This document shows positions 3,172 through 18,806 of a stretch of DNA of 24,605 bases, one piece after another. The first letter of the stretch is position 1; each line of letters opens with the position of its first letter. This DNA comes from an uncultured Prevotellaceae bacterium (GTDB taxonomy: Bacteria > Bacteroidota > Bacteroidia > Bacteroidales > Bacteroidaceae), in assembly GCA_947306605.1 (NCBI GenBank), contig CAMZHB010000001.1, positions 1 to 24,605 on the forward strand. The letters are read 5' to 3'. Under the pieces are notes generated by a model, which searched no databases, was not told where the DNA came from, and saw nothing but the letters and a program-made list of their open reading frames with translations. The position numbers and the translations under genes are program-made.

Positions 3172-3249
3172 CAGAAACGGCGTTTCAAAATTTTGAAACG
3201 CCGTTTCTGCGCGCCAAGACGCCGTCTCTGCAGCCCGAAGCCCCACCTC
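3172..3249 (+). repeat. 21-bp-phased box array, copy 1 (4 boxes), containing a perfect 38-bp palindrome at 3172-3209
   Basis: Boxes GAAACGGCGTTTC 3174, GAAACGCCGTTTC 3195, AAGACGCCGTCTC 3216 and GAAGCCCCACCTC 3237. CAGAAACGGCGTTTCAAAA/TTTTGAAACGCCGTTTCTG is a perfect inverted repeat. Lies between convergent genes. Confidence 0.9.
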
Positions 3250-3280
3250 CGTTTTTCCAAATGCCCATCACCCTTGACAG

Positions 3281-3793
3281 CTAAGACAACGACGGCAGAA
3301 CGATGTCGCACCACTCGCTTTCGAAGTTAGGTGTGAAAATGCCCTTGCCAAGGCTCTCCCCAATTTCCTGGCGCGACCAGAAACGGCCGCCGGCCAGTTC
3401 GGTAGTGTCGGGACGGATGGGCCGGTCATAGACAGCGGTGTGGACAAACACCAGTTCGCGCTCACGCTGCGAGTCATACACATACTGCGCAATGCGCCTG
3501 GGTTCGTAATCCGTGATACCCAGTTCCTCCCGCACCTCGCGCCGCAGCGCCTGCTCCACGTTCTCGCCCAGGTCCACGTGTCCCCCACAGGCCGTGTCCC
3601 ACTTGCCCGGCTGGATGTCCTTCCACTCCGGCCGCTTCTGCAAATACACGTCGCCCGCCGTGTTGAACACGTGCAGATGCACCACCGGATGCAGCAACCG
3701 GCTGCCGCCGTGGCACTCGCGGCGCGTGGCCGCCCCTGTCAAATTGCCGTTCTCGTCCACCAGCGGGAGCATATCGTCAAGAGAATCTATCAT
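3281..3793 (-). CDS. NUDIX hydrolase (YfcD/IPP-isomerase-like)
   Basis: Nudix box GHVDLGENVEQALRREVREELGI plus LHPVVH and PGKWD. The start is placed at ATG 3793 (MIDSLDDMLPLVDENG) because the longer track start at 3892 overlaps queA. Confidence 0.88.
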   Translation of the reverse strand: MIDSLDDMLPLVDENGNLTGAATRRECHGGSRLLHPVVHLHVFNTAGDVYLQKRPEWKDIQPGKWDTACGGHVDLGENVEQALRREVREELGITDYEPRRIAQYVYDSQRERELVFVHTAVYDRPIRPDTTELAGGRFWSRQEIGESLGKGIFTPNFESEWCDIVLPSLS

Positions 3794-3818
3794 GAGAGTT
3801 GAGATTTGAAAATTCGAA

Positions 3819-5048
3819 TCATGGCATGAGCAGCGAGCTGTCGCCGTAGCTGAGGAAACGGAAGTCATGGCTGAGGGCATAGTCGTAGGCACGGCGCCAG
3901 TCGTCGCCTATGAAGGCGGAGACGAGCAGAAGCAGCGTGCTCTTGGGCATGTGGAAGTTGGTGACCATGCGCTCCACGATGTGATAGGTATAGCCCGGGG
4001 CGATGATGATTTGGGTCGAGGAGTGCAAGGCATTGAGACCGTTACTTCGGAGCCATTCGACAATGGCCTGCAGGGCATCAGTCACAGGTGTGTCGCGCCA
4101 TTCGGCAGGCAAGTCATAAGGTTCCCACTGTGCCACGTGCAGAGCGTTCTCCGGGAGATTGGGATTGCGAAGCAACTTTATACCTATATAATATAAACTC
4201 TCCAGAGTGCGCACGCTGGTCGTGCCAACGGCAGTGCAATGGCCGCCGTGACGGATAAGGCGCTCCAGGCTGTCGCGCGAAACAAAGATGTATTCCGAGT
4301 GCATCTCGTGACCGGCGATTTCTTCGCTCTTCACGGGACGGAACGTGCCGGCACCGACGTGAAGCGTGATTTCGTCGCACACGATGTGGCGGGCTTCGAG
4401 GGCACGGAACACACGCTCCGTGAAATGCAGTCCGGCAGTGGGTGCAGCCACGCTGCCTTCAATCTTCGAATAGACCGTCTGGTAGGTTTCCTTGTCCTGC
4501 TCTTCGGTGTCGCGGTTCAGGTAAGGCGGAATGGGCAGTTCACCCACCGCTTCGAGCACTTCTGCAAAGGTGAGCGAAACGTCGTCCCATTCGAAACGTA
4601 CCACCTCGCCCGTGCCCTGCGTTTCCACCACCTCGGCCGTCAGCGTCACCTGACCACCGGCATGCGGTATCGTGCGCTCCAGACGTCCCTGCTTCCATTT
4701 CTTACGGTTGCCGACCAGGCAAATCCATTGACACGCGCCCCGGCTATCGAAGTTCTGCTGATATTCGTGCGGTGTGTGAGGTTCCAGGCAGAAGATTTCG
4801 ATGAGGGCACCGGTGTCCTTACGGAAATGAAGGCGGGCCTGGATGACTTTCGTGTTGTTGAACACCATCAGACTGTCAGCGGGCAACAGCGAGGGCAGGT
4901 CGGTGAAAGGACTGCTGGAGATTTTGCCTTTGTCGTACACCAGCAGTTTCGACCCGTCGCGGCCCGGCACGGGATAGCGCGCGATGCGGTCGTCGGGCAG
5001 CGGGTAGTCGTAGTCGTCGATGCGGATATGCTTTGTGTCGTAAGCCAT
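3819..5048 (-). CDS. queA: S-adenosylmethionine:tRNA ribosyltransferase-isomerase
   Basis: Motifs YDYPLP, VFNNTKVIQARL, LPIPPYL, YQTVY, AAPTAGLHF, LHVGAGTF, TNFHMPKSTL and RFLSYGD. Confidence 0.97.
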   Translation of the reverse strand: MAYDTKHIRIDDYDYPLPDDRIARYPVPGRDGSKLLVYDKGKISSSPFTDLPSLLPADSLMVFNNTKVIQARLHFRKDTGALIEIFCLEPHTPHEYQQNFDSRGACQWICLVGNRKKWKQGRLERTIPHAGGQVTLTAEVVETQGTGEVVRFEWDDVSLTFAEVLEAVGELPIPPYLNRDTEEQDKETYQTVYSKIEGSVAAPTAGLHFTERVFRALEARHIVCDEITLHVGAGTFRPVKSEEIAGHEMHSEYIFVSRDSLERLIRHGGHCTAVGTTSVRTLESLYYIGIKLLRNPNLPENALHVAQWEPYDLPAEWRDTPVTDALQAIVEWLRSNGLNALHSSTQIIIAPGYTYHIVERMVTNFHMPKSTLLLLVSAFIGDDWRRAYDYALSHDFRFLSYGDSSLLMP

Positions 5049-5067
5049 GGATTTGTTTTAGCGACTG

Positions 5068-5075
5068 CAAAAGTA
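5068..5075 (-). promoter_or_regulatory. Bacteroidetes sigmaA -7 box for queA-NUDIX
   Basis: TACTTTTG on the minus strand (consensus TAnnTTTG), 19 nt upstream of the queA ATG. No clean -33 box. Confidence 0.65.
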
Positions 5076-5110
5076 CATTTTTATTATGTTGTGGGACGAC
5101 ATTCCGGCAC

Positions 5111-5141
5111 AAAAAATCTGCGGCTGTCGCCAGCCGCAGAT
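5111..5141 (-). terminator. Intrinsic terminator of rpoD
   Basis: On the minus strand: 11-bp stem ATCTGCGGCTG/CAGCCGCAGAT, GCGA tetraloop, then a T-run. Lies 45 nt downstream of the rpoD stop. Confidence 0.88.
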
Positions 5142-5185
5142 AACATATTTAACCATTAAAACCTTTGCGAATGTACGTCCGGGGA

Positions 5186-6043
5186 TTAGAAATACTTCTT
5201 CAGCATTTGGATGGACGCGTTCTCGCGCAGCCGGCGCAAGGCGCGTTCTTTGATCTGGCGCACGCGTTCACGGGTTAGGTTCAGCGAATTGGCCACTTCC
5301 TCTGCCGTCATTTCTGGGTGACCGATACCGAAGAGCATTTTCAGCACAATCTGTTCGCGGTCGGAGAGGATGCTCAGTGCGGCCTCGAGGTCGTTGGAGA
5401 GCGACTCCTGTTCCATGCTGTTGTCGGTGGTCGGTGCGTCTTCGTCGGTCATCACGTCGATCATGGCGCTTGATTCGTCATTTTGGAACGGTGCGTCCAC
5501 GCTCACCTTCTTGCCGTTGGCGCCCATGGCCTCGGCGATTTTGTCCTCCGACGTTTCCATCAGTTCAGCCAGTTCCTGTACCGAAGGACGGCGCTGGTGT
5601 TTCTGTTCAAATTCCACTCTTGCCTTACTCAATTTACTTTGGAAACCCACCTGATTCAGCGGCATCCGCACAATGCGGCTCTGTTCCGAGATGGCCTGCA
5701 GAATGCTCTGGCGTATCCACCACACGGCATAGGAGATGAACTTGAAGCCTCGCGTTTCGTCAAACTTCTGGGCGGCTTTAATCAATCCCACGTTACCTTC
5801 GTCAATCAAATCGTTCAGAGCGAGTCCCTGGTTCTGATACTGCTTGGCCACGCTGACCACAAAGCGCAGGTTGGCTTTCGTCAGTTTGTCGAGAGCCTTC
5901 TGGTCGCCTTTGTGAATGCGCTGGGCGAGTTCCACTTCCTGGTCGGTCGTGATCAGTTCCTCGCGGCCTATCTCCACCAAGTACTTGTCGAGAGCGGCGC
6001 TCTGACGGTTCGTAATACTTTTGTTGATTTTAAGTTGACGCAT
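5186..6043 (-). CDS. rpoD: RNA polymerase sigma-70 factor, Bacteroidetes RpoD/SigA type (no region 1.1)
   Basis: MRQLKI..SITNR start, ANLRFVVSVAKQY, DETRGFKFISYAVWWIRQSI and LTRERVRQIKE; 285 aa. Confidence 0.93.
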   Translation of the reverse strand: MRQLKINKSITNRQSAALDKYLVEIGREELITTDQEVELAQRIHKGDQKALDKLTKANLRFVVSVAKQYQNQGLALNDLIDEGNVGLIKAAQKFDETRGFKFISYAVWWIRQSILQAISEQSRIVRMPLNQVGFQSKLSKARVEFEQKHQRRPSVQELAELMETSEDKIAEAMGANGKKVSVDAPFQNDESSAMIDVMTDEDAPTTDNSMEQESLSNDLEAALSILSDREQIVLKMLFGIGHPEMTAEEVANSLNLTRERVRQIKERALRRLRENASIQMLKKYF

Positions 6044-6092
6044 ATAACTTCATTTATTAGCCTTTCGCACCAGTACGCACGGGTGCGAGATG

Positions 6093-6100
6093 CAAAATTA
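6093..6100 (-). promoter_or_regulatory. sigmaA -7 box for rpoD
   Basis: TAATTTTG on the minus strand, 49 nt upstream of the ATG. It is followed by a 7-bp 5'UTR hairpin (TCGCACC/GGTGCGA, 6065-6088). Confidence 0.6.
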
Positions 6101-6281
6101 TAAAATATTTTTCTTATACGCGCCGACAAAAACCGCTTTTTTCGAGCCGTGACGAAAGAAAAATATCTTCGGGCATGCAACGCATCGTCACTACGGCCGT
6201 TTTGACATCTGGCCGGGCCAATTTCAGCCCTTTCATACCACAAGGCACGATTTACAGGCTCCCCTACCCGACTTTTACGCA

Positions 6282-6340
6282 CAGAAGTGGGACTTCAAAA
6301 ATTACAAACGGCGTCTCAGAATTTTGAAGTCCCACTTCTG
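6282..6340 (-). repeat. 21-bp-phased box array, copy 3 (3 boxes)
   Basis: Plus-strand boxes GAAGTGGGACTTC 6284, CAAACGGCGTCTC 6305 and GAAGTCCCACTTC 6326. The outer 19-bp arms (6282-6300 and 6322-6340) are perfect inverted repeats. Confidence 0.9.
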
Positions 6341-6437
6341 CAAAACCAAATCACGTTCGTTCCGCCCATGACGTACCGGAAAAGCGCGACGGTGGAGCAA
6401 ATTCGCGGCACACGGCCTTCAACTCTCAATTAATTTG

Positions 6438-6445
6438 TAACTTTG
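6438..6445 (+). promoter_or_regulatory. sigmaA -7 box for the Smr gene
   Basis: TAACTTTG, 24 nt upstream of the ATG at 6470. Confidence 0.65.
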
Positions 6446-6469
6446 TAACTCAAAACAGCAACGAAGACA

Positions 6470-7561
6470 ATGAAAATAGGAGATAAAGTTCGTTTTCTGA
6501 ACGAAATAGGCGGCGGAGTCGTCACCGGCTTCCAGGACAAAGGCATTGTGCTGGTGCAAGACGCCGACGGGTTCGACATTCCCGTACGCGTCAGCGAATG
6601 TGTGGTGGTGGAAGAGAAAAACGCCGCCAAACTGGCCTCGACAGAACCTGAAACGCCCCGGCCTACGCCGGCATCCCCGGCCACCACGCCCGAGCCGGCG
6701 CGACAGCCACAGGCTCCCGTGCCCCACGCCACACTCACCGTCGAACGCACGGGCGGCGACGTGCTCAACGTGTTCATGTGCTTCGTGCCGGTGGAAATCA
6801 CGACATTGAGCCAAACGGAATTCGACGTATATCTTGTCAACGACAGCAACTACTGGCTCGACTTCGTCTACCTCAGCGGCGAAGGCAGCAACTGGATGCT
6901 GCGCCAACGCGGCACGGCCGAGCCCAACACCAAAGTATTCGTCGAAACCGTCGGCCGCGACGTGCTCAACGACCTGAAACACGTGTGCCTCCAAATGTCC
7001 GCCTACAAGGAAGAACGCACATTCCGGCTGAAACCCGCGCTCAGCGTGGAGCTACGCCCCGACCTCACCAAGTTCTACAAGTTGCACACGTTTGCTCCCA
7101 ACGACTTCTTCAACGAACGGGTGCTCACATGGAATTTCATCCGCAACGACCAACCCGAGCACCAGGTATTTGCCAACGCCGACGACTTGCGCGAAGCATT
7201 GCTCGGAGGAAACACCAGGGACGACTACGACACGCGTCCGCACATCCACGCCATTGCCAAGAAACCGTCGCGGGAAGACGAGCCCGAAGTCATCGACCTC
7301 CATGCCGCCGAACTGCTCGAAACCACGCGCGGCATGTCGCCCGCCGACATCCTCGGATACCAGCTCGACGTGTTCCGCAAGAAAATGAACGAACACCGCA
7401 ACCAGAAGGGCAAAAAACTCATCTTCATCCACGGCAAGGGACAGGGCACCCTGCGCAACGCCGTACTGCGCGAACTGCAACTGAAGTACAAATCGTGCAC
7501 CAGCCAGGACGCGTCGTTCCGCGAGTACGGGTTCGGAGCCACCATGGTCATTATCCATTGA
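6470..7561 (+). CDS. DUF2027-Smr domain protein (N-terminal SH3/KOW-like domain, Pro-rich linker, DUF2027, C-terminal Smr)
   Basis: Starts MKIGDKVRFL. Central region YLVNDSNY...FYKLHTF. Smr motifs IDLHAAEL, FIHGKGQGTLR and YGFGATMV. Confidence 0.88.
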   Translation: MKIGDKVRFLNEIGGGVVTGFQDKGIVLVQDADGFDIPVRVSECVVVEEKNAAKLASTEPETPRPTPASPATTPEPARQPQAPVPHATLTVERTGGDVLNVFMCFVPVEITTLSQTEFDVYLVNDSNYWLDFVYLSGEGSNWMLRQRGTAEPNTKVFVETVGRDVLNDLKHVCLQMSAYKEERTFRLKPALSVELRPDLTKFYKLHTFAPNDFFNERVLTWNFIRNDQPEHQVFANADDLREALLGGNTRDDYDTRPHIHAIAKKPSREDEPEVIDLHAAELLETTRGMSPADILGYQLDVFRKKMNEHRNQKGKKLIFIHGKGQGTLRNAVLRELQLKYKSCTSQDASFREYGFGATMVIIH

Positions 7562-7776
7562 AACAGCAACCGTCCCGCCGTCTCACCGAAGACCTCCGTC
7601 CCCTTACCGGAAACCGATTTGCGCAACGGATTTAGCAAGCTGCTGACATCACTTTTGGAAACCGCGTCATCGCCCTATTCACAAAGAGTTACGAAAGAAA
7701 CCGCCACCTCTGGAATTTTTTCTGAAAAAATCGCGTTTTTTCCGCTCCGGATTACTTACATCTGAAAAAAACTTCG

Positions 7777-7784
7777 TATTTTTG
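7777..7784 (+). promoter_or_regulatory. sigmaA -7 box for the fasciclin gene
   Basis: TATTTTTG, 27 nt upstream of ATG 7812. Confidence 0.55.
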
Positions 7785-7811
7785 AAGCCGATTTCAAGAA
7801 ACGAGTGCACA

Positions 7812-9884
7812 ATGATTAAAAAAGTTTTCATTCCGCTGACAATGGCAATGTCCATTGTATTCTTCGCCAACACTTCGTGTGAAGACAAAATTGACGAAAG
7901 TAACTTGTTCACGTTTACAGGAATGACCATATCAGAATTCCTGGAGTCTGACACAACTTTCAGCGATTTCTATGAAATTCTGAAACACGCCCAAGTGTCC
8001 GTCCGACAGAAAAGTTCCCTTGACAAACTCCTGTCCACACGCGGCAACTACACTTGCTTTGCTCCCACGAACCAGGCCGTCCGCCTGTTTCTCGACTCCG
8101 TCTACGACCACCGGCCCTACGAGATTGACACCATGAGCCAGGAAGTGGCCAACACCATCGTGCTGAACTGTCTCATCGACCACGGCGACGGACAGCCCCT
8201 CCTGAGCACCCAGTTCGTCAGCGGAGCCATCGAATGGACCACCTTCAACGACCGTCACATCATCCTCGACTTCGACACCATCGAGGGCGGACACTTGGCC
8301 GTTGTCCTCAACAACTCATCGCGCATCACCCGCAGCGACATCGAGGTGTCAAACGGTGTGATTCACGCCGTCAACCGCGTGCTCTCCCCCTCCACCGCTT
8401 CCTTGTCGGCCCTGATAGCCGAAACGCCCAACCTGCTCATATTCTCCCACCTGCTTGAAATGACCGGCTGGGCAGACTCCATGCTGCTCTACCGCGACGA
8501 AGCCTATGAACTGCTGCCCGAAGGCTACCTGCAGCCCAAGAAAGGCCAGTCGTGGCAGTGGAAAAAGCCTAATCCCGCCCACCGCTACTACGGATACACC
8601 GCATTCGTTGAGCCCGACAGCGTCTATTGCGCCCAATGGAACTTGCCGGCATTACAAGTCGAGAACGGAAAGATCACGAACTGGAACGAAATATTCCCCA
8701 TCATTGAGCAACGATGCAAGGAAGTCTACACCGACGCCACGAGTGACGACTACACCAATCCTTACAACGCCGTCAACCAGTTTGTGTCGTACCACCTGCT
8801 CGATTTCCGCGTTCCCTTCAACAACCTTGTTTACCACTACAACGAGTTGGGCTATTCCCCAAAGAAGCCCACGCAGCTGACTCTTGACATCTGGGAATAC
8901 TACGAGACTTACGGCAAATTCCGTCGCATGTTCAAGATTACCCACTCAGCCAAAGACGGACGCATGAGCATCAACCGCCACAGTAAATACGACGATGCCT
9001 TCCGCGGCACCTATAAGGAGCTTTCGTGTGACCGCGAGGGCATAGAAGTGCTCAGCAGCAACGGGAAATACACCAACAACGCCCTCAACGGCTACTACCA
9101 TATCATCAATGGCATCCTGCTCTACGACCAGGACGTGCCAAACAAGGTGCTCAACGAGCGCATCCGATTCAACGCCATGGCCACCATGCGCGAGCTCATG
9201 ACCAACGACATCCGCAGCGTCTCCTACACCATCAACGCCAACCACAACATCCCGCGTGGCTACATCACCGACTTCTGGTTCTCCGACGAGACCGAAGTGA
9301 CCTACATCAACCAGATGTCGGAGCACAGCTACGAGGGCTGGCGCGACTTCCAGGGCGACGAACTCCTCATCAGCGGCTTGGTGGACTTCACCTTCAAACT
9401 CCTGCCCGTGCCCTTCGACGGCACCTATGAAATTCGCTTCGGCATGACCAACCAGTCCGGCCGTATCATGGGACAGCTCTACTTCGGCACCAATCCCGAC
9501 AACCTCCAGGCTCTCGGCCTGCCGCTCGACTTCCGCATGTCAACCAGCGACCCCAGCATCGGATGGGTGCCCGACGAGAAAGACGTGGAGATCAACCTCG
9601 AGAACGACAAGCACATGCGCAACCGCGGCTACATGAAAGGCCCCAACCAGTTCGCCGTCAACTCCTACGGCAACGCCATGACGCAGCCCCTGCGCTCCGC
9701 CACCGGCACCAGAAACGCCATCCGGCGCATCATCTACACCGGCAAACTGGAACAGCAAAAGACTTACTACATCCGTGTGAAAACCCTGCTCGAAGGCGTC
9801 ACCACCAACGGTCTCGCCCTTGACTACATGGAGCTCGTGCCCAAATGGGTTTACAGCGGCATCGAAGCAGAGGACATCTGGTAA
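7812..9884 (+). CDS. Fasciclin (FAS1) domain lipoprotein
   Basis: Lipoprotein-type signal MIKKVFIPLTMAMSIVFFANTSC-EDKIDE. FAS1 motifs YTCFAPTNQA and NGVIHAVNRVL, with a second degenerate pair YTAFVEPDSV and NGYYHIINGIL. Start placed at ATG 7812 rather than TTG 7782. Confidence 0.82.
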   Translation: MIKKVFIPLTMAMSIVFFANTSCEDKIDESNLFTFTGMTISEFLESDTTFSDFYEILKHAQVSVRQKSSLDKLLSTRGNYTCFAPTNQAVRLFLDSVYDHRPYEIDTMSQEVANTIVLNCLIDHGDGQPLLSTQFVSGAIEWTTFNDRHIILDFDTIEGGHLAVVLNNSSRITRSDIEVSNGVIHAVNRVLSPSTASLSALIAETPNLLIFSHLLEMTGWADSMLLYRDEAYELLPEGYLQPKKGQSWQWKKPNPAHRYYGYTAFVEPDSVYCAQWNLPALQVENGKITNWNEIFPIIEQRCKEVYTDATSDDYTNPYNAVNQFVSYHLLDFRVPFNNLVYHYNELGYSPKKPTQLTLDIWEYYETYGKFRRMFKITHSAKDGRMSINRHSKYDDAFRGTYKELSCDREGIEVLSSNGKYTNNALNGYYHIINGILLYDQDVPNKVLNERIRFNAMATMRELMTNDIRSVSYTINANHNIPRGYITDFWFSDETEVTYINQMSEHSYEGWRDFQGDELLISGLVDFTFKLLPVPFDGTYEIRFGMTNQSGRIMGQLYFGTNPDNLQALGLPLDFRMSTSDPSIGWVPDEKDVEINLENDKHMRNRGYMKGPNQFAVNSYGNAMTQPLRSATGTRNAIRRIIYTGKLEQQKTYYIRVKTLLEGVTTNGLALDYMELVPKWVYSGIEAEDIW

Positions 9885-9886
9885 CG

Positions 9887-9964
9887 AAGGCCAGGTTTCG
9901 GGGCGCAGAAACGGCGTCTCAAAATAACGAAGTCCCACCTCAAATTGTTGAAGTGGGACTTCTG
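9887..9964 (-). repeat. 21-bp-phased box array, copy 4 (4 boxes); the hairpin plus U-tract may terminate the fasciclin gene
   Basis: Plus-strand boxes AAGGCCAGGTTTC 9887, GAAACGGCGTCTC 9908, GAAGTCCCACCTC 9929 and GAAGTGGGACTTC 9950, followed by TGTTTT. Lies between convergent genes. Confidence 0.88.
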
Positions 9965-10009
9965 TTTTGCCACAGACTGTAACTGCCGGCAACAATTAAA
10001 TCCAGACGA

Positions 10010-11305
10010 TCAAAGCTGCTTCAGTTGGAAATTACGCCAGAGCACCTTAATGTCGTTCCCGTCGTGAATCTGCAGCATCAAGCGGCCCGGAGTATTGCCA
10101 ATGAGTTCGTCCTCCAGGTCTGACATAGGTTCACCATTGAGCCAAGTCTGTACATGATTGCCTTCAACACGCAGGCGCAGAGTGTTCCATTCGCCTTCCT
10201 TCAGGATGCTCTCCTTTTCGTCGGGAATCTGCTGAAGCCAGCCGCGTCCGTACGACTCGTAGATGCCACCCGTGTCACTACCCTTGGGAGCCACCTCGCA
10301 CTGCCATCCGTGAACGGTGTTGGTGCCTTCAATGAAAGAATGGAAGAAGAGGCCGCTGTTGCCGTTCGAAACCTGCTTGAACTCCACAGTAAGGTCAAAG
10401 TCCTTGTAATACTTGCGGGTGCAGAGATAAGCGTACTCCCGCTTGTCACCGTTCTCGGTCACCAGATTACCCTCGCTGTCCACGCTCCACTTGCCGTCAC
10501 CGAAGGATTCCCAGCCCATCAGGTCCTTGCCGTTGAAGAGACTCTCGGTCTGTCCGCCCTTATGAGGCAGAGGACGAATTTTGATGTTCTTGAAAGAAGC
10601 GGGGTCCCCATGGTCCTGCAGGCAGATGACACCTTCACTGGCCAGGCCGTATTCGGGAGCATGAGACCACTTGCCGCTGCCTTTCCTGGCAAACCAGTCG
10701 TCGGTCCAAGCCTCGAACTCCAGTATCTTCTCACCGTTGAGCCAATGCTCCACGTGGCCGTTGTCGAAGACAATCCGCGAATTGTTCCACTCGCCCACGG
10801 GATTAATGTGCATCTTGGTAGAGTCAGGCAGGTGCATGGCATAGTCCACGCCCAGTTTCTGCCACTCTTCGAGTTTCTCGGGAGCATTCACTTCTTCCCA
10901 ACCCTCGTTGTCTATCAACTGATATTCGGGGCCGGTCACATAAGGAACACTGAACACGGGATTCTCCACCACGTGATAGAGCATACCGCTATTGCCGCCA
11001 TGAGTCAGTTTCCAGTCCCAGGAAAGCTCAAAATCTGCAAACTTGCGCTTGGTAACGATGTAGCCGGACTCGTCGGCGCCCTCGCCACTTGCCTGAACGC
11101 AACCGTCAACAGCCGTCCATCCGTTGGACAGCACGGTATCGTTGAAGTTACGCCACTCGGACAGATCCTTGCCATTGAACAGCAGTTCCCATCCTGCCTT
11201 TTTCTCGGCTCTTGTCAGCGAATTGTCCTGAGGTTGCGTCTGACAAGACCAAAGCATTCCACTCATTGCCACTACAGCGAGCAGCGTCAGATTTTTCTTT
11301 TTCAT
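10010..11305 (-). CDS. Tandem DUF1080 (3-keto-glycoside hydrolase-like) lipoprotein
   Basis: Lipobox MLWSC. Two repeats: LFNGKDL...NSG...EYQ...GEWN...LQDHG...FKNIKI, then LFNGKDL...NSG...GEWN...LQIH...WRN. Confidence 0.9.
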   Translation of the reverse strand: MKKKNLTLLAVVAMSGMLWSCQTQPQDNSLTRAEKKAGWELLFNGKDLSEWRNFNDTVLSNGWTAVDGCVQASGEGADESGYIVTKRKFADFELSWDWKLTHGGNSGMLYHVVENPVFSVPYVTGPEYQLIDNEGWEEVNAPEKLEEWQKLGVDYAMHLPDSTKMHINPVGEWNNSRIVFDNGHVEHWLNGEKILEFEAWTDDWFARKGSGKWSHAPEYGLASEGVICLQDHGDPASFKNIKIRPLPHKGGQTESLFNGKDLMGWESFGDGKWSVDSEGNLVTENGDKREYAYLCTRKYYKDFDLTVEFKQVSNGNSGLFFHSFIEGTNTVHGWQCEVAPKGSDTGGIYESYGRGWLQQIPDEKESILKEGEWNTLRLRVEGNHVQTWLNGEPMSDLEDELIGNTPGRLMLQIHDGNDIKVLWRNFQLKQL

Positions 11306-11441
11306 TTCTTTACGTTGGTTTTATGTTTATGAAAGTTTTCTTCTCATCGGTTCGCTTATGACAAAGCCGCCACAGTGAAAACAGGTCGGTTTCCACATCA
11401 TTCTTCTTCAGTCTTACAAAAGACAACGTCTGCAGGCAACG

Positions 11442-11999
11442 CTATTTCTTCCCGAACAGGCGGTCGTAGAGGCCTTTGAAGCCACCGGCGTGACGGGCTT
11501 CGTCGCGTGCCATTTCGTGCACGGAGTCGTGAATGGCGTCAAGTCCGAGTTCCTTGGCACGCTTGGCAATGCGCGTTTTGTCTTCGCAGGCACCCACCTC
11601 GGCGGCAATGCGAGCCTCCAGATTTTTCTTGGTGTCCCACACACAGTCGCCCAGCATCTCCATGAAACGGCTGGCATGGTCGGCCTCTTCGTAAGCGTAA
11701 CGGCGGAAAGCGTCGGCCACCTCGGGATAGCCCTCGCGGTCGGCCTGACGGGCCATTGCCAGATACATGCCCACTTCGGCACACTCGCCCTGGGCATGGG
11801 CCTGGAGGCCCTCCACCACCTCGGCGTCCACACCCTTGGCAATGCCAATGACGTGCTCGGCGGCAAACGTCTGGGCGGCGCCACCTTCTACATATTCCTT
11901 AAACTTACTGGCGGGAACACCGCATTTAGGGCACTTCTCGGGTGCCGAATCACCTTCGTGAATATATCCACATACGGTGCAAATGAATTTCTTTTTCAT
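11442..11999 (-). CDS. rbr: Reverse rubrerythrin / NADH peroxidase (N-terminal rubredoxin, C-terminal ferritin-like domain)
   Basis: CTVCGY...CPKC, followed by the di-iron motifs [14 protein letters not shown] and DEARH. Confidence 0.93.
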
Positions 12000-12032
12000 C
12001 CTTAATTGTCGCTAAATTGATTTTGTACCCCA

Positions 12033-12063
12033 CAAAGTTACGAAAAAACGAGGGCAGAGCAAG
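12033..12063 (-). promoter_or_regulatory. sigmaA promoter of rbr, embedded in the end of the 84-bp repeat
   Basis: Minus strand reads CTTG-N19-TAACTTTG, matching the Bacteroidetes -33/-7 consensus and spacing. Lies 33 nt upstream of the rbr ATG. Confidence 0.75.
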
Positions 12064-12187
12064 AAAAATGAAACAAAGTTTCAAGTTTTTGCTATGCCGA
12101 GTGTCAGTAACTTCTCTAAAGTTACGAAAAAACGAGGGCAGAGCAAGAAAAATGAAACAAAGTTTCAGATTTTTGTCTTGCCGAGTG
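12034..12187. repeat. Tandem direct repeat with 84-bp period (one full unit plus a 70-bp partial unit); each unit is an imperfect hairpin
   Basis: 12034-12083 and 12118-12167 are identical over 50 nt, and the next 20 nt have 5 mismatches. Unit 1 is bounded by AAGTTAC/GTAACTT, with internal pairing GGCAGAGCAA...TGAAAC-AAA-GTTTCA...TTGCTATGCC. Confidence 0.92.
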
Positions 12188-12197
12188 AAAAAAACAA

Positions 12198-12256
12198 CAG
12201 AAACGGCGTTTCAAAATTTTGAGGCGCCGTTTCTGACTTTTGAAACGCCGTCTTTG
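12198..12256 (+). repeat. 21-bp-phased box array, copy 2 (3 boxes)
   Basis: Boxes GAAACGGCGTTTC 12200, GAGGCGCCGTTTC 12221 and GAAACGCCGTCTT 12242. Similarity to copy 1 extends over about 90 bp. Confidence 0.9.
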
Positions 12257-12432: not shown

Positions 12433-12477
12433 CATCCCGAAGGTATCATCCTATTATAATTATACTTTTTACGACCC

Positions 12478-14211
12478 ATGGAACAGTTGAAACATGAATG
12501 CGGTGTGGCATTGATCCGGTTGCTGAAACCGCTGGCTTATTATGAGCAGAAGTACGGCACATGGCGCTACGGGCTGAACAAGCTCTACCTGATGATGGAG
12601 AAGCAGCACAACCGTGGCCAGGAAGGAGCCGGCGTAGCCTGTGTCAGCCTTGACGCACCGACAGGCCGTGAATACATGTTCCGCGAACGGGCCGAGGGAA
12701 CGAACGCCATCACTGAAATCTTCAAACGCATGGACGATTCGTTTGCCGGACAACTGTATATGGGCCACCTGCGCTACTCCACGACGGGCAAGAGCGGCCT
12801 GACCTATGTCCATCCGTTCCTGCGCCGCAACAACTGGCGGTCGAAGAATCTTTGTCTTTGCGGCAATTTCAATATGACCAACATCGAAGAAGTCTTTGAC
12901 TGCATGACTGCCCAAGGCCAATCGCCCCGAATCTATGGCGACTCTTACATCACGCTCGAACTCATGGGTCACCGCCTGGACCGCGAAGTGGAGCGCCTCT
13001 ATGCAGAGGCCCGGGAGCAAGGGCTGCAAGGCACGGACATTACCCGCCACATAGAAGACAACATACAGATAGCAAACGTATTGCGCACGACGATGACACT
13101 TTTCGACGGCGGTTACGTGATGTGCGGACTGACAGGCTCCGGCGAGACATTTGCCGTGCGCGACCCGTGGGGCATCCGTCCCGCGTTTTACTATCAAGAC
13201 GACGAAATCGTAGTGCTCGCCAGCGAGCGACCAGTCATTCAAACCACCTTCGACCTCCGCGCCGGGGACATCAGCGAACTGCAGCCCGGACAAGCGCTTA
13301 TTGTGCGGAAAAACGGTGAAAGCCTTCTGCAACAAATCCTGAACGCAGAGAAATACTCGGCCTGTTCCTTTGAACGCATCTATTTCAGCCGCGGCTCCGA
13401 CCGCGACATCTATAAAGAACGCAAACAGTTGGGCGAGCAGCTCATCAGCCCCATTCTGAAAGCCATTGACGGCGACCTGGCACACACGGTGTTCTCCTAC
13501 ATTCCCAACACGGCCGAAGTGACATTCTACGGGATAACCGACGGTTTCCGACGGCTGAATCACGACGTGAGGATAGAAAAAGTGGTGTGGAAGGACATCA
13601 AACTGCGCACGTTCATCACCGAAGGCACGGAACGCAACGATCTGGCCGCCCATGTCTACGACATCACTTACGGCTCGCTGCGCCCCTACGAAGACAATCT
13701 GGTCATCATTGACGACTCCATCGTGCGGGGAACGACCCTGCGCGAGAGTATCTTCAAGATACTCGACCGCCTCCACCCGAAGAAAATCGTGATGGTGTCG
13801 AGTTCGCCCCAAATACGCTATCCCGATTACTACGGCATCGACATGTCGCACCTTGAAGAACTTTGTGCTTTCCGGGCGGCCATCGAATTAATCAAAGACC
13901 GGAATATGACCGGGCTGATTTCCGACACTTACCGGGCATGTCGCACCGAACCGCAAGCCAAGAACCATGTCCGTGCCATTTATGCTCCCTTCAGTGTGGA
14001 AGAAATCAATGGCAAAATCATCGAAATGCTCCGGCCCGAAGGCATGCAATCACCCGTGGAACTAGTGTTCCAGAGCATTGAAGGCCTCCACAAAGCCTGC
14101 CCCAACCATCCCGGCGACTGGTATTTCACCGGCCATTACCCCACGCCCGGCGGCATCCGCATGGTAAACCAGGCGTTCGTAAACTATGTGGAAAACGTAT
14201 TGAAAGTATAA
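12478..14211 (+). CDS. purF: Amidophosphoribosyltransferase (class II glutamine amidotransferase plus PRTase domain), Bacteroidetes type
   Basis: Propeptide MEQLKHE-CG, NRGQEGAG, GHLRYST, RDPWGIRP, CSFERIYFSR and the PRPP motif IIDDSIVRGTT. Confidence 0.9.
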   Translation: MEQLKHECGVALIRLLKPLAYYEQKYGTWRYGLNKLYLMMEKQHNRGQEGAGVACVSLDAPTGREYMFRERAEGTNAITEIFKRMDDSFAGQLYMGHLRYSTTGKSGLTYVHPFLRRNNWRSKNLCLCGNFNMTNIEEVFDCMTAQGQSPRIYGDSYITLELMGHRLDREVERLYAEAREQGLQGTDITRHIEDNIQIANVLRTTMTLFDGGYVMCGLTGSGETFAVRDPWGIRPAFYYQDDEIVVLASERPVIQTTFDLRAGDISELQPGQALIVRKNGESLLQQILNAEKYSACSFERIYFSRGSDRDIYKERKQLGEQLISPILKAIDGDLAHTVFSYIPNTAEVTFYGITDGFRRLNHDVRIEKVVWKDIKLRTFITEGTERNDLAAHVYDITYGSLRPYEDNLVIIDDSIVRGTTLRESIFKILDRLHPKKIVMVSSSPQIRYPDYYGIDMSHLEELCAFRAAIELIKDRNMTGLISDTYRACRTEPQAKNHVRAIYAPFSVEEINGKIIEMLRPEGMQSPVELVFQSIEGLHKACPNHPGDWYFTGHYPTPGGIRMVNQAFVNYVENVLKV

Positions 14212-14228
14212 CTATAAAAGAGATTCAT

Positions 14229-15893
14229 ATGTGTGGCATCGCGGCAATCCTCAATGTAAAGGAACAAACACAAGAATTGCGTCAGAAAGCATTGCGCATG
14301 AGTCAGAAAATCCGTCACCGCGGCCCCGACTGGAGCGGTATTTATTGCGGAGGTTCAGCCATCTTGGCTCACGAGCGGTTGAGTATTGTTGACCCCGAAT
14401 CGGGCCGGCAACCATTGTATTCTCCCGACGGCAAACAGATTTTGGCTGTCAACGGTGAGATATACAACCATCAGGAGATTCGCAAGAAGTATGCCGGACA
14501 ATACGAGTTTCAGACCGGCAGCGACTGTGAAGTCATCCTTGCGCTCTACCGGAAAAAAGGCGTCGGCTTCTTGGAAGACTTGAGCGGCATTTTTGCTTTT
14601 GTCCTATACGATGAAGAACGTGACGAATTCTTAATTGCCCGCGACCCGATTGGTGTCATACCGCTCTATATCGGTTACGACGGCAACGGGATGATCTATG
14701 TGGCTTCAGAGTTGAAAGCTCTCGAAGGACAGTGTGAACACTACGAATCATTCTTGCCCGGACATTATTATTGGAGCCGGGAACCGGGAATAAAAAGGTA
14801 TTACCAGCGCGACTGGATGGAATACGATGCTGTCAAGGACAACGAAGCCAACGTCCCGGCAATTCGCGATGCACTCGAAAAAGCCGTAAAACGCCAGCTA
14901 ATGTCCGACGTGCCTTATGGTGTTCTGCTTTCGGGCGGCCTCGACTCGTCAGTAGTTTCCGCCATTGCCGAAAAATACAGCGAAATGCGCATTGAAGACA
15001 ACTCCAGAACGAAAGCCTATTGGCCCCGTCTTCATTCGTTCGCGGTAGGACTGAAAGGGGCTCCCGACTTGGCCAAGGCGAAACAGGTAGCCGACCACAT
15101 CGGCACCGTCCACCACGAAATCAACTATACCATTCAAGAAGGGATTGACGCCATTCGCGATGTTATCTATTACATCGAGACATACGACGTTACCACGGTC
15201 CGCGCCTCCACGCCAATGTATCTGCTGGCACGAGTCATCAAATCAATGGGCATCAAGATGGTGCTTTCGGGAGAAGGAGCCGATGAAATCTTCGGAGGAT
15301 ATCTCTATTTCCACAAAGCACCTTCAGCCAGGGCATTCCATGAAGAAACAGTCCGCAAGTTAGGAAAACTGCATCTTTACGATTGTCTCCGTGCCAACAA
15401 AAGTTTGTCAGCATGGGGTGTCGAAGGCCGTGTGCCATTTCTTGACAAAGAATTTCTGGATGTTGCCATGCGGACCAATCCGGAAGCCAAGATGTGTCCA
15501 GGCAATACCATTGAAAAGAAAATCGTACGCGAAGCCTTTGCCAACATGTTGCCCCCTGAAATAGCCGGGCGACAAAAGGAACAATTCAGCGACGGTGTCG
15601 GATACTCATGGATTGACACGCTCAAGGCCATCACTGCAGAAGCCGTGAGCGATGAGCAGATGGCCCATGCCGCCGAGAGTTTCCCTATCAATCCGCCCAA
15701 GAATAAGGAGGAATACTTTTATCGCACCATCTTTGCAGAGCACTTCCCCAGCGACTCCGCTGCAAGAACTGTTCCGAGCGAGGCCAGCGTAGCCTGTTCC
15801 ACAGCAATTGCTTTGGAGTGGGATAAAGCATTCCTGAATCTTAACGACCCCAGCGGACGTGCGGTAAAGGGAGTCCATGAACAAGCATACTGA
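14229..15893 (+). CDS. asnB: Asparagine synthetase B (glutamine-hydrolysing)
   Basis: MCGI start, RHRGPDW, HERLSIVD, VNGEIYN, LSGGLDSS, SGEGADE and EGRVPFLD; 554 aa. Confidence 0.97.
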   Translation: MCGIAAILNVKEQTQELRQKALRMSQKIRHRGPDWSGIYCGGSAILAHERLSIVDPESGRQPLYSPDGKQILAVNGEIYNHQEIRKKYAGQYEFQTGSDCEVILALYRKKGVGFLEDLSGIFAFVLYDEERDEFLIARDPIGVIPLYIGYDGNGMIYVASELKALEGQCEHYESFLPGHYYWSREPGIKRYYQRDWMEYDAVKDNEANVPAIRDALEKAVKRQLMSDVPYGVLLSGGLDSSVVSAIAEKYSEMRIEDNSRTKAYWPRLHSFAVGLKGAPDLAKAKQVADHIGTVHHEINYTIQEGIDAIRDVIYYIETYDVTTVRASTPMYLLARVIKSMGIKMVLSGEGADEIFGGYLYFHKAPSARAFHEETVRKLGKLHLYDCLRANKSLSAWGVEGRVPFLDKEFLDVAMRTNPEAKMCPGNTIEKKIVREAFANMLPPEIAGRQKEQFSDGVGYSWIDTLKAITAEAVSDEQMAHAAESFPINPPKNKEEYFYRTIFAEHFPSDSAARTVPSEASVACSTAIALEWDKAFLNLNDPSGRAVKGVHEQAY

Positions 15894-15896
15894 ATT

Positions 15897-16997
15897 ATGA
15901 GACAAGCAAGATTGATTGTCGATGATGGCAGCGTGTTCTACGGTTGGTCGTTTGGTTCAGAATGTAATGTATCAGGCGAGGTCGTCTTCAACACCGCCAT
16001 GACAGGCTATCCCGAGAGCCTGACCGACCCCAGCTATGCAGGGCAAATACTCACGTTCACATATCCATTGATAGGCAACTACGGTGTGCCTTCGGTGGGA
16101 ACAGGCGACAACGGATTGCCCACACTGATGGAAAGCGGACGGATTCATGTCAAAGCAATCATCGTGGCGGATTACAGTCAAACGTTTTCCCATTGGAACG
16201 CGAAAGAATCGTTGGCAGCATGGCTTCGGCGCGAAGGAGTGCCGGCCCTAACAGGCATCGACACCAGACGGCTGACGAAGTTGCTACGCGAGCATGGGGT
16301 CATGACGGGACGGATTGTGATTGAAGGCGAAGAAGACAACATTGCAACAGAAAGCTATGGTGACATCAACTGGGTGGAACAGGTTAGTTGCAAGGACGTA
16401 ATCACATACTTGCCTGAACGCGCTGTCGACGTACACAAGCGAGTAGTCCTCGTGGACTGCGGTGTCAAGGCAAACATCATCCGTTGCCTGCTCCGGCGTG
16501 GTCTTGAAGTGATACGAGTTCCATGGGACTATGACTTCAACACACACGATTTCGACGGGCTGTTCCTGACAAACGGCCCGGGAGACCCCGACCGTTGCGA
16601 GAAGACGGTGGAACACATCCGACAATTCCTGAACAGCAAGTATCCGAAGCCGTGCATGGGCATTTGCCTCGGCAATCAATTGCTGGCCAAGGCAGCAGGA
16701 GCAAGGACTTACAAACTGAAATATGGGCACCGCAGCCACAATCAGCCAGTGAGAAAGGCAGGGAGCAACCAATGCTTCATCACGTCGCAGAACCATGGCT
16801 ATGCCGTGGACGAAACGACGTTGCCTTCGGATTGGGAGACTCTCTTTGTGAACATGAACGACGGTTCTAACGAAGGTATCCGTCACAAAAGCCACCCGTG
16901 GATGTCTGCGCAGTTCCATCCCGAGGCCTGTTCGGGGCCGGTGGACACGGAGTTTTTGTTTGACGAATTTGTAAACATGCTAAACGCTACGGAATAA
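15897..16997 (+). CDS. carA: Carbamoyl-phosphate synthase small subunit
   Basis: [41 protein letters not shown] and QFHPE, so the catalytic triad is intact. Confidence 0.97.
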
Positions 16998-16998
16998 C

Positions 16999-18696
16999 AT
17001 GACGGACAAGAGCATAAAGAAGGTTCTGCTGCTCGGCAGCGGAGCATTGAAGATTGGACAGGCGGGCGAGTTCGACTATTCCGGTTCGCAAGCTTTGAAA
17101 GCCTTGAAAGAAGAAGGCATACATACCATTCTCATCAACCCCAACATCGCCACGGTCCAGACATCGAAGGGCGTGGCCGACACCGTGTATTTCCTTCCCG
17201 TGCGGACAGACTTTGTGGAACGCATCATCGAGAAAGAACGGCCCGACGGCATACTGCTGTCGTTCGGCGGACAAACGGCCTTGAACTGCGGTGTGGAACT
17301 GTACAGGCAAGGCATACTCGACAAATACCATGTGCAAGTGCTGGGAACGCCAGTGCAGGCCATCAACGACACCGAAGACCGCGACCTTTTTGTGAAACGA
17401 CTGGACGAGATTGGTGTAAAAACCATCAGCAGCCAGGCTTGCAGCAACATCGAAGAGGTGAGGCAGGCTGCCGCCGAACTGGGATTTCCCGTCATTCTCC
17501 GCGCCGCCTACGCCTTGGGAGGACTGGGTTCCGGGTTCTGCGACAACGAGGAAGAACTGTCCTTACAGGCTGAAGAGGCCTTCTCGTTTTCGCCACAGGT
17601 ACTGGTGGAAAAGTCTCTGAAAGGTTGGAAAGAGATAGAGTATGAAGTAGTGCGCGACCGCTACGACAACTGCATCACCGTGTGCAACATGGAGAACTTT
17701 GACCCGTTGGGCATCCATACAGGCGAGTCCATCGTGGTTGCTCCTTCGCAGACGCTCAGCAATGCCGAATACCACAAATTGCGCGCCCTCGCCATCAAGA
17801 TTATCCGTCACATCGGCATCGTGGGCGAGTGCAACGTGCAATACGCCCTTGACCCGCAGTCGGAGGACTATCGTGTCATTGAGGTTAACGCGCGCTTGTC
17901 GAGGTCGTCGGCCTTGGCATCGAAGGCCACAGGCTATCCCCTGGCCTTCGTCGCCGCCAAACTCGGACTGGGTTACGGATTGTTTGAATTGAAAAACTCG
18001 GTCACGAAGACCACGTCGGCTTTTTTCGAGCCGGCCCTCGACTACGTGGTATGCAAGATACCCCGTTGGGACCTTTCGAAGTTCCACGGCGTGAACCACC
18101 AGCTCGGCTCGTCCATGAAAAGTGTCGGCGAGGTCATGGCCATCGGGCGCACTTTTGAGGAAGCCCTGCAGAAAGGGCTGCGCATGATCGGTCAGGGCAT
18201 GCACGGTTTCGTGGAGAACAAGGTGCTGCGTGTCGACGACATGGAGGACGCCCTGCTTCACGCCACCGACAATCGCATTTTCGTCATATCCAAAGCCATG
18301 CAGATGGGTTACACCCTGGAACAGATTCACCGGCTGACCATGATTGACCTCTGGTTCCTGCAAAAGCTGAAACATGTGGTTGACATCGACCTGCGGCTAC
18401 GCGAGTTCGCCTCGTTCATGAGTTTTGCCGGGTCCATGGAGCGCACGGAACTCATGGAATGCTTCGAAACACCGGAGTTCGTCGGGTTGTTGCGCGAAGC
18501 CAAGGTCTACGGTTTCTCCGATTTCCAAATAGCGCGGGCCGTCGGTCTGGGAACCGTCATGGGCATGGAACAGGCCATGCTCCTCGTCCGGGAATGGCGG
18601 AAAGAGTGCGGCATACTTCCCGTAGTCAACCAGATAGACACCCTGGCCGCCGAATATCCCGCACAGACAAACTACCTCTACCTGTCGTATTTGTAA
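16999..18696 (+). CDS. carB: Carbamoyl-phosphate synthase large subunit, N-terminal half only (565 aa; truncated or split)
   Basis: [54 protein letters not shown] and [11 protein letters not shown]. Stops at [20 protein letters not shown], where full-length CarB (about 1070 aa) continues into its second ATP-grasp half. Confidence 0.92.
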
Positions 18697-18747
18697 ATTC
18701 CCGGCACATCACGAGAATTATATTCGGCAGTGATGTACATTGAAAAA

Positions 18748-18806
18748 CAAAGGCGGCGTCTCTAACTTTTGAGACGCCGCCTTTGCGCGCAGAAATCCGA
18801 CCTTTG
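18748..18806 (+). repeat. 21-bp-phased box array, copy 5 (3 boxes, third degenerate)
   Basis: Boxes AAGGCGGCGTCTC 18750, GAGACGCCGCCTT 18771 and GAAATCCGACCTT 18792. Perfect 15-bp stem CAAAGGCGGCGTCTC/GAGACGCCGCCTTTG with an 8-nt loop. Confidence 0.85.

Follow-up and report, generated by a model that had tools for sequence, protein, structure and literature searches.

The window analysed here, the whole stretch of 24,605 nt (contig CAMZHB010000001.1, positions 1-24,605, forward strand, assembly GCA_947306605.1), carries five intergenic arrays of short palindromic boxes that repeat at an exact 21-bp step, which raises the question of whether they are phased binding sites for a protein or copies of a repetitive extragenic element. 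Its host is an uncultured rumen Prevotellaceae bacterium (GTDB Bacteroidota; Bacteroidales; Bacteroidaceae), whose metagenome-assembled genome (MAG), labelled G000, comprises 1.71 Mb in 281 contigs and is 68.7% (about 69%) complete. A first-pass annotation of this DNA had put forward both readings. In our analysis, the reading as a REP-like repeat fits, while the phased binding sites found no positive support, and we class the family as a variant of the REP/BIME-like repeats. The coordinates reported for the arrays (3172-3249, 6282-6340, 9887-9964, 12198-12256, and 18748-18806) were borne out, and the listed box starts proved correct on re-reading, the outermost boxes at 9887, 3237, and 18792 being degenerate.

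The 13-bp box that had been taken as the unit is present, but the natural unit is a 19-nt arm that contains the box as its inner part and forms a 38-bp inverted repeat. The arm consensus of this family (family 1) is CAGAAGCGGCGTTTCAAAA and that of the type-B variant CAGAAGTGGGACTTCAAAA, and conservation along the arm peaks at the central CGGCG and not in the half-sites. An arm together with a 2-nt linker makes a module of 21 bp. Two arms placed head to head, with no spacer, form the element core, a palindrome that ends in CAGAAG / CTTCTG and folds as a hairpin or cruciform of 17-19 bp, with energies of -19 to -24 kcal/mol and z of -4 to -7 for the core hairpins; folding always favours this long arm-to-arm stem, and mini-hairpins at the level of the box were rejected on that ground. 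Extra modules of the same orientation stand on one side of the core in 21-bp steps (layouts F..F R..R), giving arrays of one to five modules around one central dyad. Among the arms found in G000 with a position weight matrix (PWM), 162 of the 163 F-to-R spacings measure 19 bp, same-orientation spacings (F-F or R-R) are 21 bp (n=86) or 42 bp (n=4), and linker lengths are fixed at 0 or 2 nt. The constant box-to-box distance of 21 bp without indels, first noted for the window, therefore holds across the genome, where arms are spaced by only 19, 21, or 42 bp. FR layouts number 99 and FFR or FRR layouts 51, with FRF rare and RF almost absent, some of these labels being wrong because the matrix, built from type-A arms, overlooks those of type B. 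Beyond the inner 19 nt, complementarity between left and right sides ends, and no leader or tail consensus was seen outside the modules. Both an 80-bp standard element in the form of a B-A-A'-B' palindrome and a nested insertion of a new palindrome into the centre of an old one, with target duplication, were considered and rejected, because the outer modules of one side are not complementary to those of the other (a value of about 0.3, where random sequence gives 0.25); the nested model is further contradicted by the lack of any repeat relationship between linker pairs, and the apparent 80-bp form stems from an averaged consensus that blends left-extended and right-extended copies.

The core of array 1 is a perfect 38-bp palindrome at 3172..3209, in which the F arm (3172-3190) abuts the R arm (3191-3209); these arms are 100% complementary, have PWM scores of 30.7 and type-A boxes starting at 3174 and 3195, and fold as DNA into a hairpin of -23.6 kcal/mol (z -6.35). 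The core is followed at 3210..3251, in the 21-bp register (boxes 3216 and 3237), by two R-side modules of increasing degeneracy that have no left-side partners, and the same layout is found in a strain of about 94% identity, the differences being confined to the outermost module. Array 2 (6282..6340) consists of a type-B F arm (6282-6300) and a type-B R arm (6322-6340) that are 100% complementary and flank a single unpaired A-like F module (6303-6321), the fold having a stem of 19 bp and a loop of 21 nt (-19.8 kcal/mol, z -7.05); it occupies the divergent gap between a sigma-70 gene on the minus strand and a DUF2027/Smr gene on the plus strand. Array 3 (9886..9964), in a convergent gap, begins 2 nt past the stop of a fasciclin-domain gene and runs from a degenerate module (9886-9905) through an A-type F arm (9906-9924) to a type-B hairpin with arms at 9929-9943 and 9948-9962; compared with array 2, this hairpin has its central triplet flipped. 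Its minus strand is terminator-like in a pattern scan, and it is unchanged in three conspecific contigs. Array 4 (12198..12256) has the layout F R R, with F at 12198-12216, R at 12217-12235, and, after a 2-nt linker, a second R at 12238-12256, the F arm being 89% complementary to each R arm; it lies in the divergent gap between rubrerythrin on the minus strand and an amidotransferase-like gene on the plus strand. Two conspecific contigs carry it in identical form and four more apparently unchanged, and the differences nearby in those four are one flank substitution and a 1-bp indel in the upstream A-run. Array 5 (18748..18806), located between co-directional genes and 51 nt past the stop of a 565-aa ORF, is a variant palindrome of the CAAAGGCGGCGTCTC subtype whose arms (18748-18765 and 18768-18785) are 94% complementary and fold into a hairpin of -21 kcal/mol (z -5.86); one degenerate module follows at 18786-18806.

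The expectation of a high-copy family, raised from these five copies, was confirmed genome-wide. Matches to the arm consensus with at most four mismatches number 355 in G000, against 6 in the reversed sequence used as the chance-level control, and the PWM gives 753 raw matches against 14, which resolve into at least 479 non-overlapping arms at a minimum of 219 loci in 1.71 Mb (lower bounds, given the missed type-B arms). The predicted intergenic bias is likewise evident, with 34 of the 753 raw matches (~4.5%) inside predicted genes despite an assembly that is 83% coding by a crude codon-usage caller. Among gaps of at least 80 bp, arrays occupy 42% of convergent, 35% of divergent, and 31% of co-directional ones. 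The upstream stop is nearer than the next start (median 93 vs 145 bp; 57:28, p 0.002), arrays in divergent gaps lie a median of 133 bp from the nearer start, and asymmetric arrays between co-directional genes read FRR along the gene direction in a ratio of 32:12 (p 0.004). Several arrays stand downstream of a separate, unique terminator hairpin. Long hairpins occur at 12.7 per 100 kb in G000 versus 3.1 in G010, an element-free relative. On metagenome contigs, genes with elements on both sides include those for a BspA-type LRR protein and an OPT transporter, beside which lie a HAD-family hydrolase and cytochrome c assembly genes; no mobility gene was found among the element-flanked genes of these contigs.

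The species range of the family is narrow. The FR-centre pattern occurs at 76 sites in G000 and 67 in G019, a sister species represented by a rumen Bacteroidaceae MAG that is 63% complete, and is absent from the other 27 of the 29 species of the genus and from 16 other families of the order. A scan of 185,579 species genomes returned it only in the G019 record, plus three single matches, and viral contigs gave no match to the repeat pattern. G019 also carries a second family of different sequence, again with a 21-bp period. The two sister species share ~84% coding identity, and their intergenic DNA is too diverged for alignment, so that no target-site duplication or clean empty site is definable against G019. 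Orthologous gaps could be compared in 15 cases, with family 1 present in both species in four, in G000 only in two, and in G000 opposite family 2 in G019 in three; occupancy differs in five of the nine occupied gaps. Separately, G014 has a dispersed element with two tandem 21-bp units, and G010 has 42/43-bp arrays.

Partner arms covary. Paired F and reverse-complemented R arms share 15.49 of 19 positions, compared with 14.54 (sd 0.10) for shuffled partners, and odds ratios for covariation reach 6-14 at positions 5, 6, 16, and 17. The earlier observation that half-sites change together is correct between box types A and B but does not extend within type A, where covariation is lacking at the box-internal pairs 5/13 and 6/12 (odds ratios of 0.77 and 0.68) and these pairs hold A-C combinations in 173 and 47 of 479 arms, respectively. 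Between strains, arms have 0.0060 transversions per site, other intergenic DNA has 0.0157, and 4-fold sites have 0.0164, a 2.7-fold depletion in arms (p 7e-5 against intergenic DNA, 1.6e-5 against 4-fold sites). Transitions per site are 0.0211, 0.0190, and 0.0292, respectively, placing arms at 0.7 times the 4-fold sites and about level with other intergenic DNA. Since transversions are depleted and transitions only mildly reduced, it is the hairpin pairing that is conserved: within the species, purifying constraint acts on the base pairing between arms. Such constraint is not what a purely selfish model predicts, and it suggests a function at the level of the host. In 50 arrays spanned by conspecific contigs, from strains of 97-99.7% identity, no insertion or excision polymorphism was seen, and the sole indel of at least 4 bp measures 21 bp and is, in this one case, a deletion between 9-bp direct repeats of adjacent modules.

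We consider it probable that the arrays belong to a lineage-specific, REP/BIME-like family of extragenic palindromic repeats, built of 21-bp modules, spread in trans and persisting. This reading fits because the genome holds hundreds of intergenic hairpin-forming palindromes, because the family is restricted to two sister species among those scanned, because orthologous gaps are occupied differently in the two, and because covariation runs between the arms of the palindrome and not within the box. The distribution suggests an expansion in the common ancestor of the two species, with turnover since. Arrays would change by whole modules, as in the one direct case, and slippage would keep the 21-bp period exact. 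By analogy with REP/RAYT, copies may have been spread in trans by an enzyme with specificity for the folded single-stranded form. They would persist where harmless, behind genes and at a distance from promoters, and the hairpin itself is probably of some use to the host, for instance as a buffer or as a hairpin at the transcript end. As for the enzyme, the co-distributed RAYT/TnpA(Y1) that the first-pass annotation had proposed to look for did not turn up: six-frame searches with PF01797 (RAYT/Y1), in which positive controls worked, gave no match in G000 or G019, and the chance that a single-copy RAYT was missed in both incomplete MAGs (68.7% and 63%) is roughly 0.1. PF07282 (TnpB) and PF01548 (IS110) were not found in G000, G019, or G010, the first two of which are only 63-69% complete. 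A search of the whole window against Rfam (E<=1) returned nothing over any array, and no such Bacteroidota family was found described in the literature, in agreement with the initial impression that this is not a named element.

Phased sites for a lineage-specific dimeric DNA-binding protein, whether nucleoid-associated, regulatory, or recombination-related, appear improbable. One dimer would occupy each 13-bp 5-3-5 palindrome, and, as 21 bp corresponds to two helical turns, the step would set the dimers on the same helix face. A protein of this kind would account for box-to-box distances of 21 bp whatever the arm orientation, for the same module length in the second, different-sequence family of G019, for purifying constraint on the arms between strains, and for the 5-3-5 palindromy of boxes A and B alike in spite of their different half-sites. 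However, the type-A half-site pairs lack covariation and carry the A-C combinations noted above, conservation is best at the central CGGCG, covariation is found between partner arms, and the wobble-tolerant constraint is of the kind expected from pairing and not from base-specific contacts. No candidate protein was identified, and a core nucleoid system is unlikely to be so young as to be missing in 27 of the 29 species of the genus. We also give little credence to RNA-level devices, that is, intrinsic terminators or 3'-end stabilising hairpins that have been homogenised, with a neighbouring module supplying the U-tract. The conserved pairing, the proximity of arrays to stops over starts, and the FRR bias along the gene direction are all in line with such devices, as are the terminator-like scores of three of the five window arrays and the ordinary unique terminator that the orthologous 3-keto-disaccharide hydrolase gene of G010 has where G000 has array 3. 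Yet divergent gaps are occupied about as often as convergent and co-directional ones, and, as noted, several arrays lie beyond a separate, unique terminator hairpin. T residues in the 9 nt after the core hairpin, of which about 40% of core hairpins have at least five, number 3.25 on the sense and 3.17 on the antisense side in co-directional gaps (p 0.92), and arm mismatches are symmetric (position 13: 33 T/C vs 33 C/T), so that neither strand is favoured as RNA. Metatranscriptome contigs from four runs gave sparse coverage, part of it from the sister species, and nothing on transcript ends.

DNA uptake sequences like those of Neisseria or Pasteurellaceae are hardly credible here. They often occur as inverted pairs behind genes, and a short over-represented word in intergenic inverted pairs is what we observe, but they are common inside genes and shared across a genus or family, whereas only ~4.5% of our matches fall in genes, two of the 29 species of the genus have the family, and the 21-bp modular arrays are without counterpart among uptake sequences. 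A broader interpretation, which we raise tentatively, is that the family is one local representative of a class, as yet undescribed, that extends more widely through uncultured Bacteroidales, with lineage-specific sequences, a shared module length of two helical turns (21-22 or 42 bp), and no RAYT, the period being set by common machinery and not by descent; that machinery would be a protein footprint or an enzyme that processes single-strand DNA. The second 21-bp family of G019, the tandem units of G014, and the arrays of G010 point in this direction. If a module length of 21-22 bp is general in Bacteroidales, it would imply a shared mechanism that nobody has described.

To our knowledge, only the REP-type repeats of Proteobacteria have been studied well, and these are explained by a RAYT transposase. 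The REP/BIME-like family favoured here forms a comparable population that takes about a third of the usable intergenic gaps in a Bacteroidota genome, and what differs is the arrangement of 21-bp modules around one dyad, with no RAYT detected and with measurably conserved pairing. Such repeats fragment MAG assemblies and can also serve as species-specific markers for rumen Prevotella-like lineages.

REP sequences and REPINs, with their RAYT transposases, have been described from Enterobacteria and Pseudomonas (PMC3116915, PMC3337134, PMC3733652), and one end of a REP palindrome carries a conserved tetranucleotide, GTAG or CGTC (PMC3733652). Our family shares with them short imperfect palindromes of 20-40 bp in hundreds of extragenic copies, a sequence specific to the lineage, inverted doublets whose folding gives a longer hairpin, the possibility of several families per genome, and slow turnover with vertical inheritance between sister species. 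It differs in that the end tag is missing (of 159 palindromes, 5 have GTAG near an outer end and 12 have CGTC), no RAYT was found in either genome, the arms abut without a spacer, extra arms of the same orientation follow at a rigid 21-bp step, and the host is a Bacteroidota MAG. With the BIMEs of E. coli it has in common intergenic mosaic clusters, more than one type of palindromic unit, and linkers of fixed length. BIME units alternate in orientation and are joined by type-specific linkers, whereas here there is a single dyad, the units on either side of it all point the same way, RF is almost never seen, and each repeat unit holds a 13-bp sub-palindrome of its own. That sub-palindrome recalls E. 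coli matS, the example given in the first-pass annotation, in its length and 5-3-5 design; matS, however, comprises about two dozen single sites in the terminus macrodomain only, as opposed to at least 479 arms at 219 or more loci, in phased arrays over many contigs. Within the Bacteroidota, BrickBuilt, a minisatellite-MITE of Porphyromonas gingivalis with 19 copies per genome, is composed of 23-nt bricks that form long arrays of direct repeats, accompanied by leader and tail subunits and by small terminal inverted repeats (PMC4596501). It resembles our family in being strictly intergenic and species-restricted and in its short head-to-tail bricks without spacers, whereas the family described here occupies ~220 loci, each with one to five 21-bp modules arranged around a central palindrome.

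The repeats of family 1 are built from a 19-nt arm, called F in one orientation and R as the reverse complement, laid out in 21-bp modules. The five arrays of the window (arrays 1 to 5, at 3172-3251, 6282-6340, 9886-9964, 12198-12256 and 18748-18806) lie where the first-pass annotation put them, and our ruler re-reading agrees with every box start that it listed. An inverted-repeat scan recovers in each array two arms of 15-19 nt with 89-100% complementarity, which adjoin without a spacer at 3172-3190 and 3191-3209 and at 12198-12216 and 12217-12235, and enclose 21 nt at 6282-6300 and 6322-6340. The 13-bp palindrome noted first, here called the box, occupies positions 3-15 of the arm. Across the arms of the source MAG (G000), F is followed by R at 19 bp in 162 of 163 neighbor pairs, and F by F, or R by R, at 21 bp (n = 86) or 42 bp (n = 4); because the box is off-centre in the arm, boxes nonetheless follow one another at 21 bp in all cases, which is the exact period originally described. 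The loci of this genome are arranged as FR (99), FFR or FRR (51), single F (39), FF (12) and a few longer forms, and an RF layout is almost never present. While an averaged profile about the FR junction suggests a palindrome of ~80 bp with a B-A-A'-B' layout, we reject it, since left-right complementarity per element, 0.46-0.99 across the inner 19 nt, drops in the next module out to ~0.3, compared with 0.25 for random sequence. The extra modules are therefore one-sided. Folded as single-stranded DNA, the window arrays are predicted to pair one arm with the other in a long hairpin (-19 to -24 kcal/mol, z -4 to -7) in preference to box-sized mini-hairpins.

The source MAG comprises 281 contigs and 1.71 Mb at 51.8% G+C and 68.7% completeness, with the window as the whole of its longest contig; the closest proteins to the QueA encoded there come from ruminant Prevotellaceae/Bacteroidaceae MAGs (best identity 70%). 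Its top over-represented 10-14-mers are all fragments of CAGAAGCGGCGTTTCAAAA joined to its own reverse complement. This arm has 355 matches at up to 4 mismatches, against 6 in a reversed-sequence control, and with an iterated PWM the raw hits number 753, compared with 14 in the control; they resolve into 479 non-overlapping arms in 219 loci. Both counts are lower bounds, as the PWM was trained on arms of one variant (type A) and misses those of the other (type B), for example in window arrays 2 and 3; at no fewer than these numbers, the high-copy family proposed from the window is confirmed. The intergenic bias suspected earlier is equally clear, with only 34 of the 753 raw hits inside genes in an assembly of which a crude codon-usage caller called 83% coding.

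Elements occur in 42% of convergent, 31% of co-directional and 35% of divergent gaps of at least 80 bp and are not restricted to gene 3' ends. In co-directional gaps, the upstream stop is a median of 93 bp away and the next start 145 bp (57:28, p 0.002), and in divergent gaps the nearer start lies at a median of 133 bp; start-proximal DNA is avoided. Asymmetric arrays in co-directional gaps are mostly F R R when read in the direction of the genes (32:12, p 0.004), and a congener free of the repeats (G010) has, at its orthologous hydrolase gene, an ordinary unique terminator in the place of array 3. We consider it unlikely, all the same, that the arrays are themselves terminators: T content 3' of the core hairpin shows no difference between sense and antisense (p 0.92), and several arrays are preceded by a unique terminator hairpin of their upstream gene region, separate from the array itself.

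A second reading, that the arrays are phased binding sites for a protein, would account for boxes set two helical turns apart and had been offered together with the claim that their half-sites change together. In boxes of type A, no covariation links the presumed half-sites: positions 5/13 read A-T 190, A-C 173, G-T 61 and G-C 43 times, and positions 6/12 read A-T 137, A-C 47, G-T 239 and G-C 56 times. By comparison, the paired arms of one palindrome have 15.49 of 19 positions in common, against 14.54 (sd 0.10) with shuffled partners, with arm-to-arm odds ratios of 6-14 at positions 5, 6, 16 and 17; the hairpin, not the box, is the unit copied or selected. Variation across the family consists almost solely of transitions (position 6: A 117, G 235, C 0, T 0; position 13: T 209, C 141). 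Between strains, arms accumulate 0.0211 transitions and 0.0060 transversions per site, other intergenic DNA 0.0190 and 0.0157, and 4-fold degenerate sites 0.0292 and 0.0164. Arm transversions are thus depleted ~2.7-fold (p 7e-5 against other intergenic DNA and 1.6e-5 against 4-fold sites), and arm transitions proceed at the rate of other intergenic DNA and at ~0.7 times that of 4-fold sites (p 0.02). On one strand, a transition leaves a G-T or G-U wobble in place of the Watson-Crick pair. Arm pairing is under constraint, in a pattern expected of selection, or of hairpin-templated correction, for pairing; base-specific protein contacts would not give it, and the protein-array reading appears improbable. 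Arm-to-arm mismatches at position 13 are symmetric (33 vs 33), so no single strand is favored.

G000 has 76 sites of the FR-centre pattern, and G019, a rumen MAG of the same genus with ~84% identical coding DNA, has 67; the pattern is absent from the 27 remaining species of the genus and from 16 other families of the order. A scan of 185,579 species, one genome each, returned repeated occurrence only in the G019 record, a Bacteroidaceae MAG from water-deer omasum, and single hits in 3 unrelated genomes. Viral contigs gave no matches, and rumen metagenome contigs gave many.

Among 15 orthologous gaps compared between G000 and G019, family 1 is common to both species in 4 and present in G000 only in 2; in 3, G000 has family 1 and G019 a second family, and in 1, family 2 occurs in G019 only. 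Family 2 has arms like ACGAAAACGGAGTTAG, with CTAAATCCGATTTAG boxes or palindromes, and is dispersed and intergenic (L089, L092, L093, L096, L100, L105, L106, for example L106:465-530, L109 and L115, all loci of G019). Its period is again 21 bp, in 12 of 13 same-orientation neighbors, and G000 is nearly devoid of it: the core 14-mer of family 2 matches there once. Among conspecific strains, the 50 distinct arrays covered by 40 metagenome contigs (97-99.7% identity) show no presence/absence differences, and every conspecific contig that covers array 3 or array 4 has it unchanged. The sole array indel of at least 4 bp is exactly 21 bp (contig C85:2336 vs locus L164) and is flanked by a 9-bp direct repeat, CCGCTTCGG, of two neighboring R modules, one case of an array changing by a whole module. 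In G019 (L088:5880-6370, L122), the region matching window 9885-12000 runs from a fasciclin-domain gene directly through an array to rubrerythrin, with no 3-keto-disaccharide hydrolase gene (window 10010-11305) between them; this is a gene-sized indel or rearrangement with the array at the junction.

Different modular repeats occur elsewhere in the genus. G010 lacks palindromic family 1 and has long arrays in which units of 42 or 43 bp follow one another head to tail (L271:7100-7400, L272:90-300, L278:40-300 and L278:11040-11130) with a common core, CCAATTAGCACGTGTAAA, the remainder of the unit differing from array to array. G014 has a dispersed element of ~150 bp, with 8 copies in 218 kb (L283:2505, L287, L289:2008-2084, L290, L293, L294), which contains GATAACAACTCGCCTTCCAG and, after it, a tandem pair of 21-bp units of form TTTAAACTACATCCGACCTTG. 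That a two-turn module length is general is conceivable, if doubtful.

Further features of the window deserve mention. In the interval separating array 4 from the rubrerythrin start, 12034-12187 comprises two tandem copies of an element with an 84-bp period (12034-12103 vs 12118-12187, 70-nt stretches 92.9% identical), retained in the conspecific contigs covering that region. The longest NUDIX ORF (3281-3892, minus strand) overlaps the end of queA (3819-5048, minus strand) by 74 nt, because of which it was dropped by the gene caller and its real start is probably further downstream. Positions 1-3066 encode a large GH31-family glycosidase with fibronectin type III and F5/8 type C domains, as well as a weak dockerin-like domain that falls slightly short of the Pfam cut-off (E 1e-4), a combination unusual in a Bacteroidota protein.

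As to partner genes, six-frame HMM searches with working positive controls were negative for a Y1/RAYT transposase (PF01797) in G000 and G019, and for TnpB (PF07282) and an IS110-type transposase (PF01548) in G000, G019 and G010, both carrier MAGs being incomplete; genes with elements on both sides, on unbinned contigs, are ordinary genes. An enzyme that works in trans on the folded single strand may have dispersed the copies of family 1, and the host might make use of the hairpin.

The module layouts of BIMEs and of BrickBuilt (PMC4596501) are unlike that of family 1. REP/REPIN elements, on the other hand, resemble it in anatomy, copy number, intergenic restriction and narrow phyletic range, as well as in the coexistence of sister families and slow turnover (PMC3116915, PMC3337134, PMC3733652), and family 1 matches such REP/REPIN-like selfish or semi-domesticated palindromes. 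The suggestion of a REP-like mobile element holds for anatomy and distribution. Of two features that define REP/RAYT systems, the end tag is lacking (GTAG in 5 and CGTC in 12 of 159 palindromes), and no RAYT gene was detected in the two incomplete carriers. Given this likeness and these two differences, we regard family 1 as a new variant that stands outside REP/RAYT membership.
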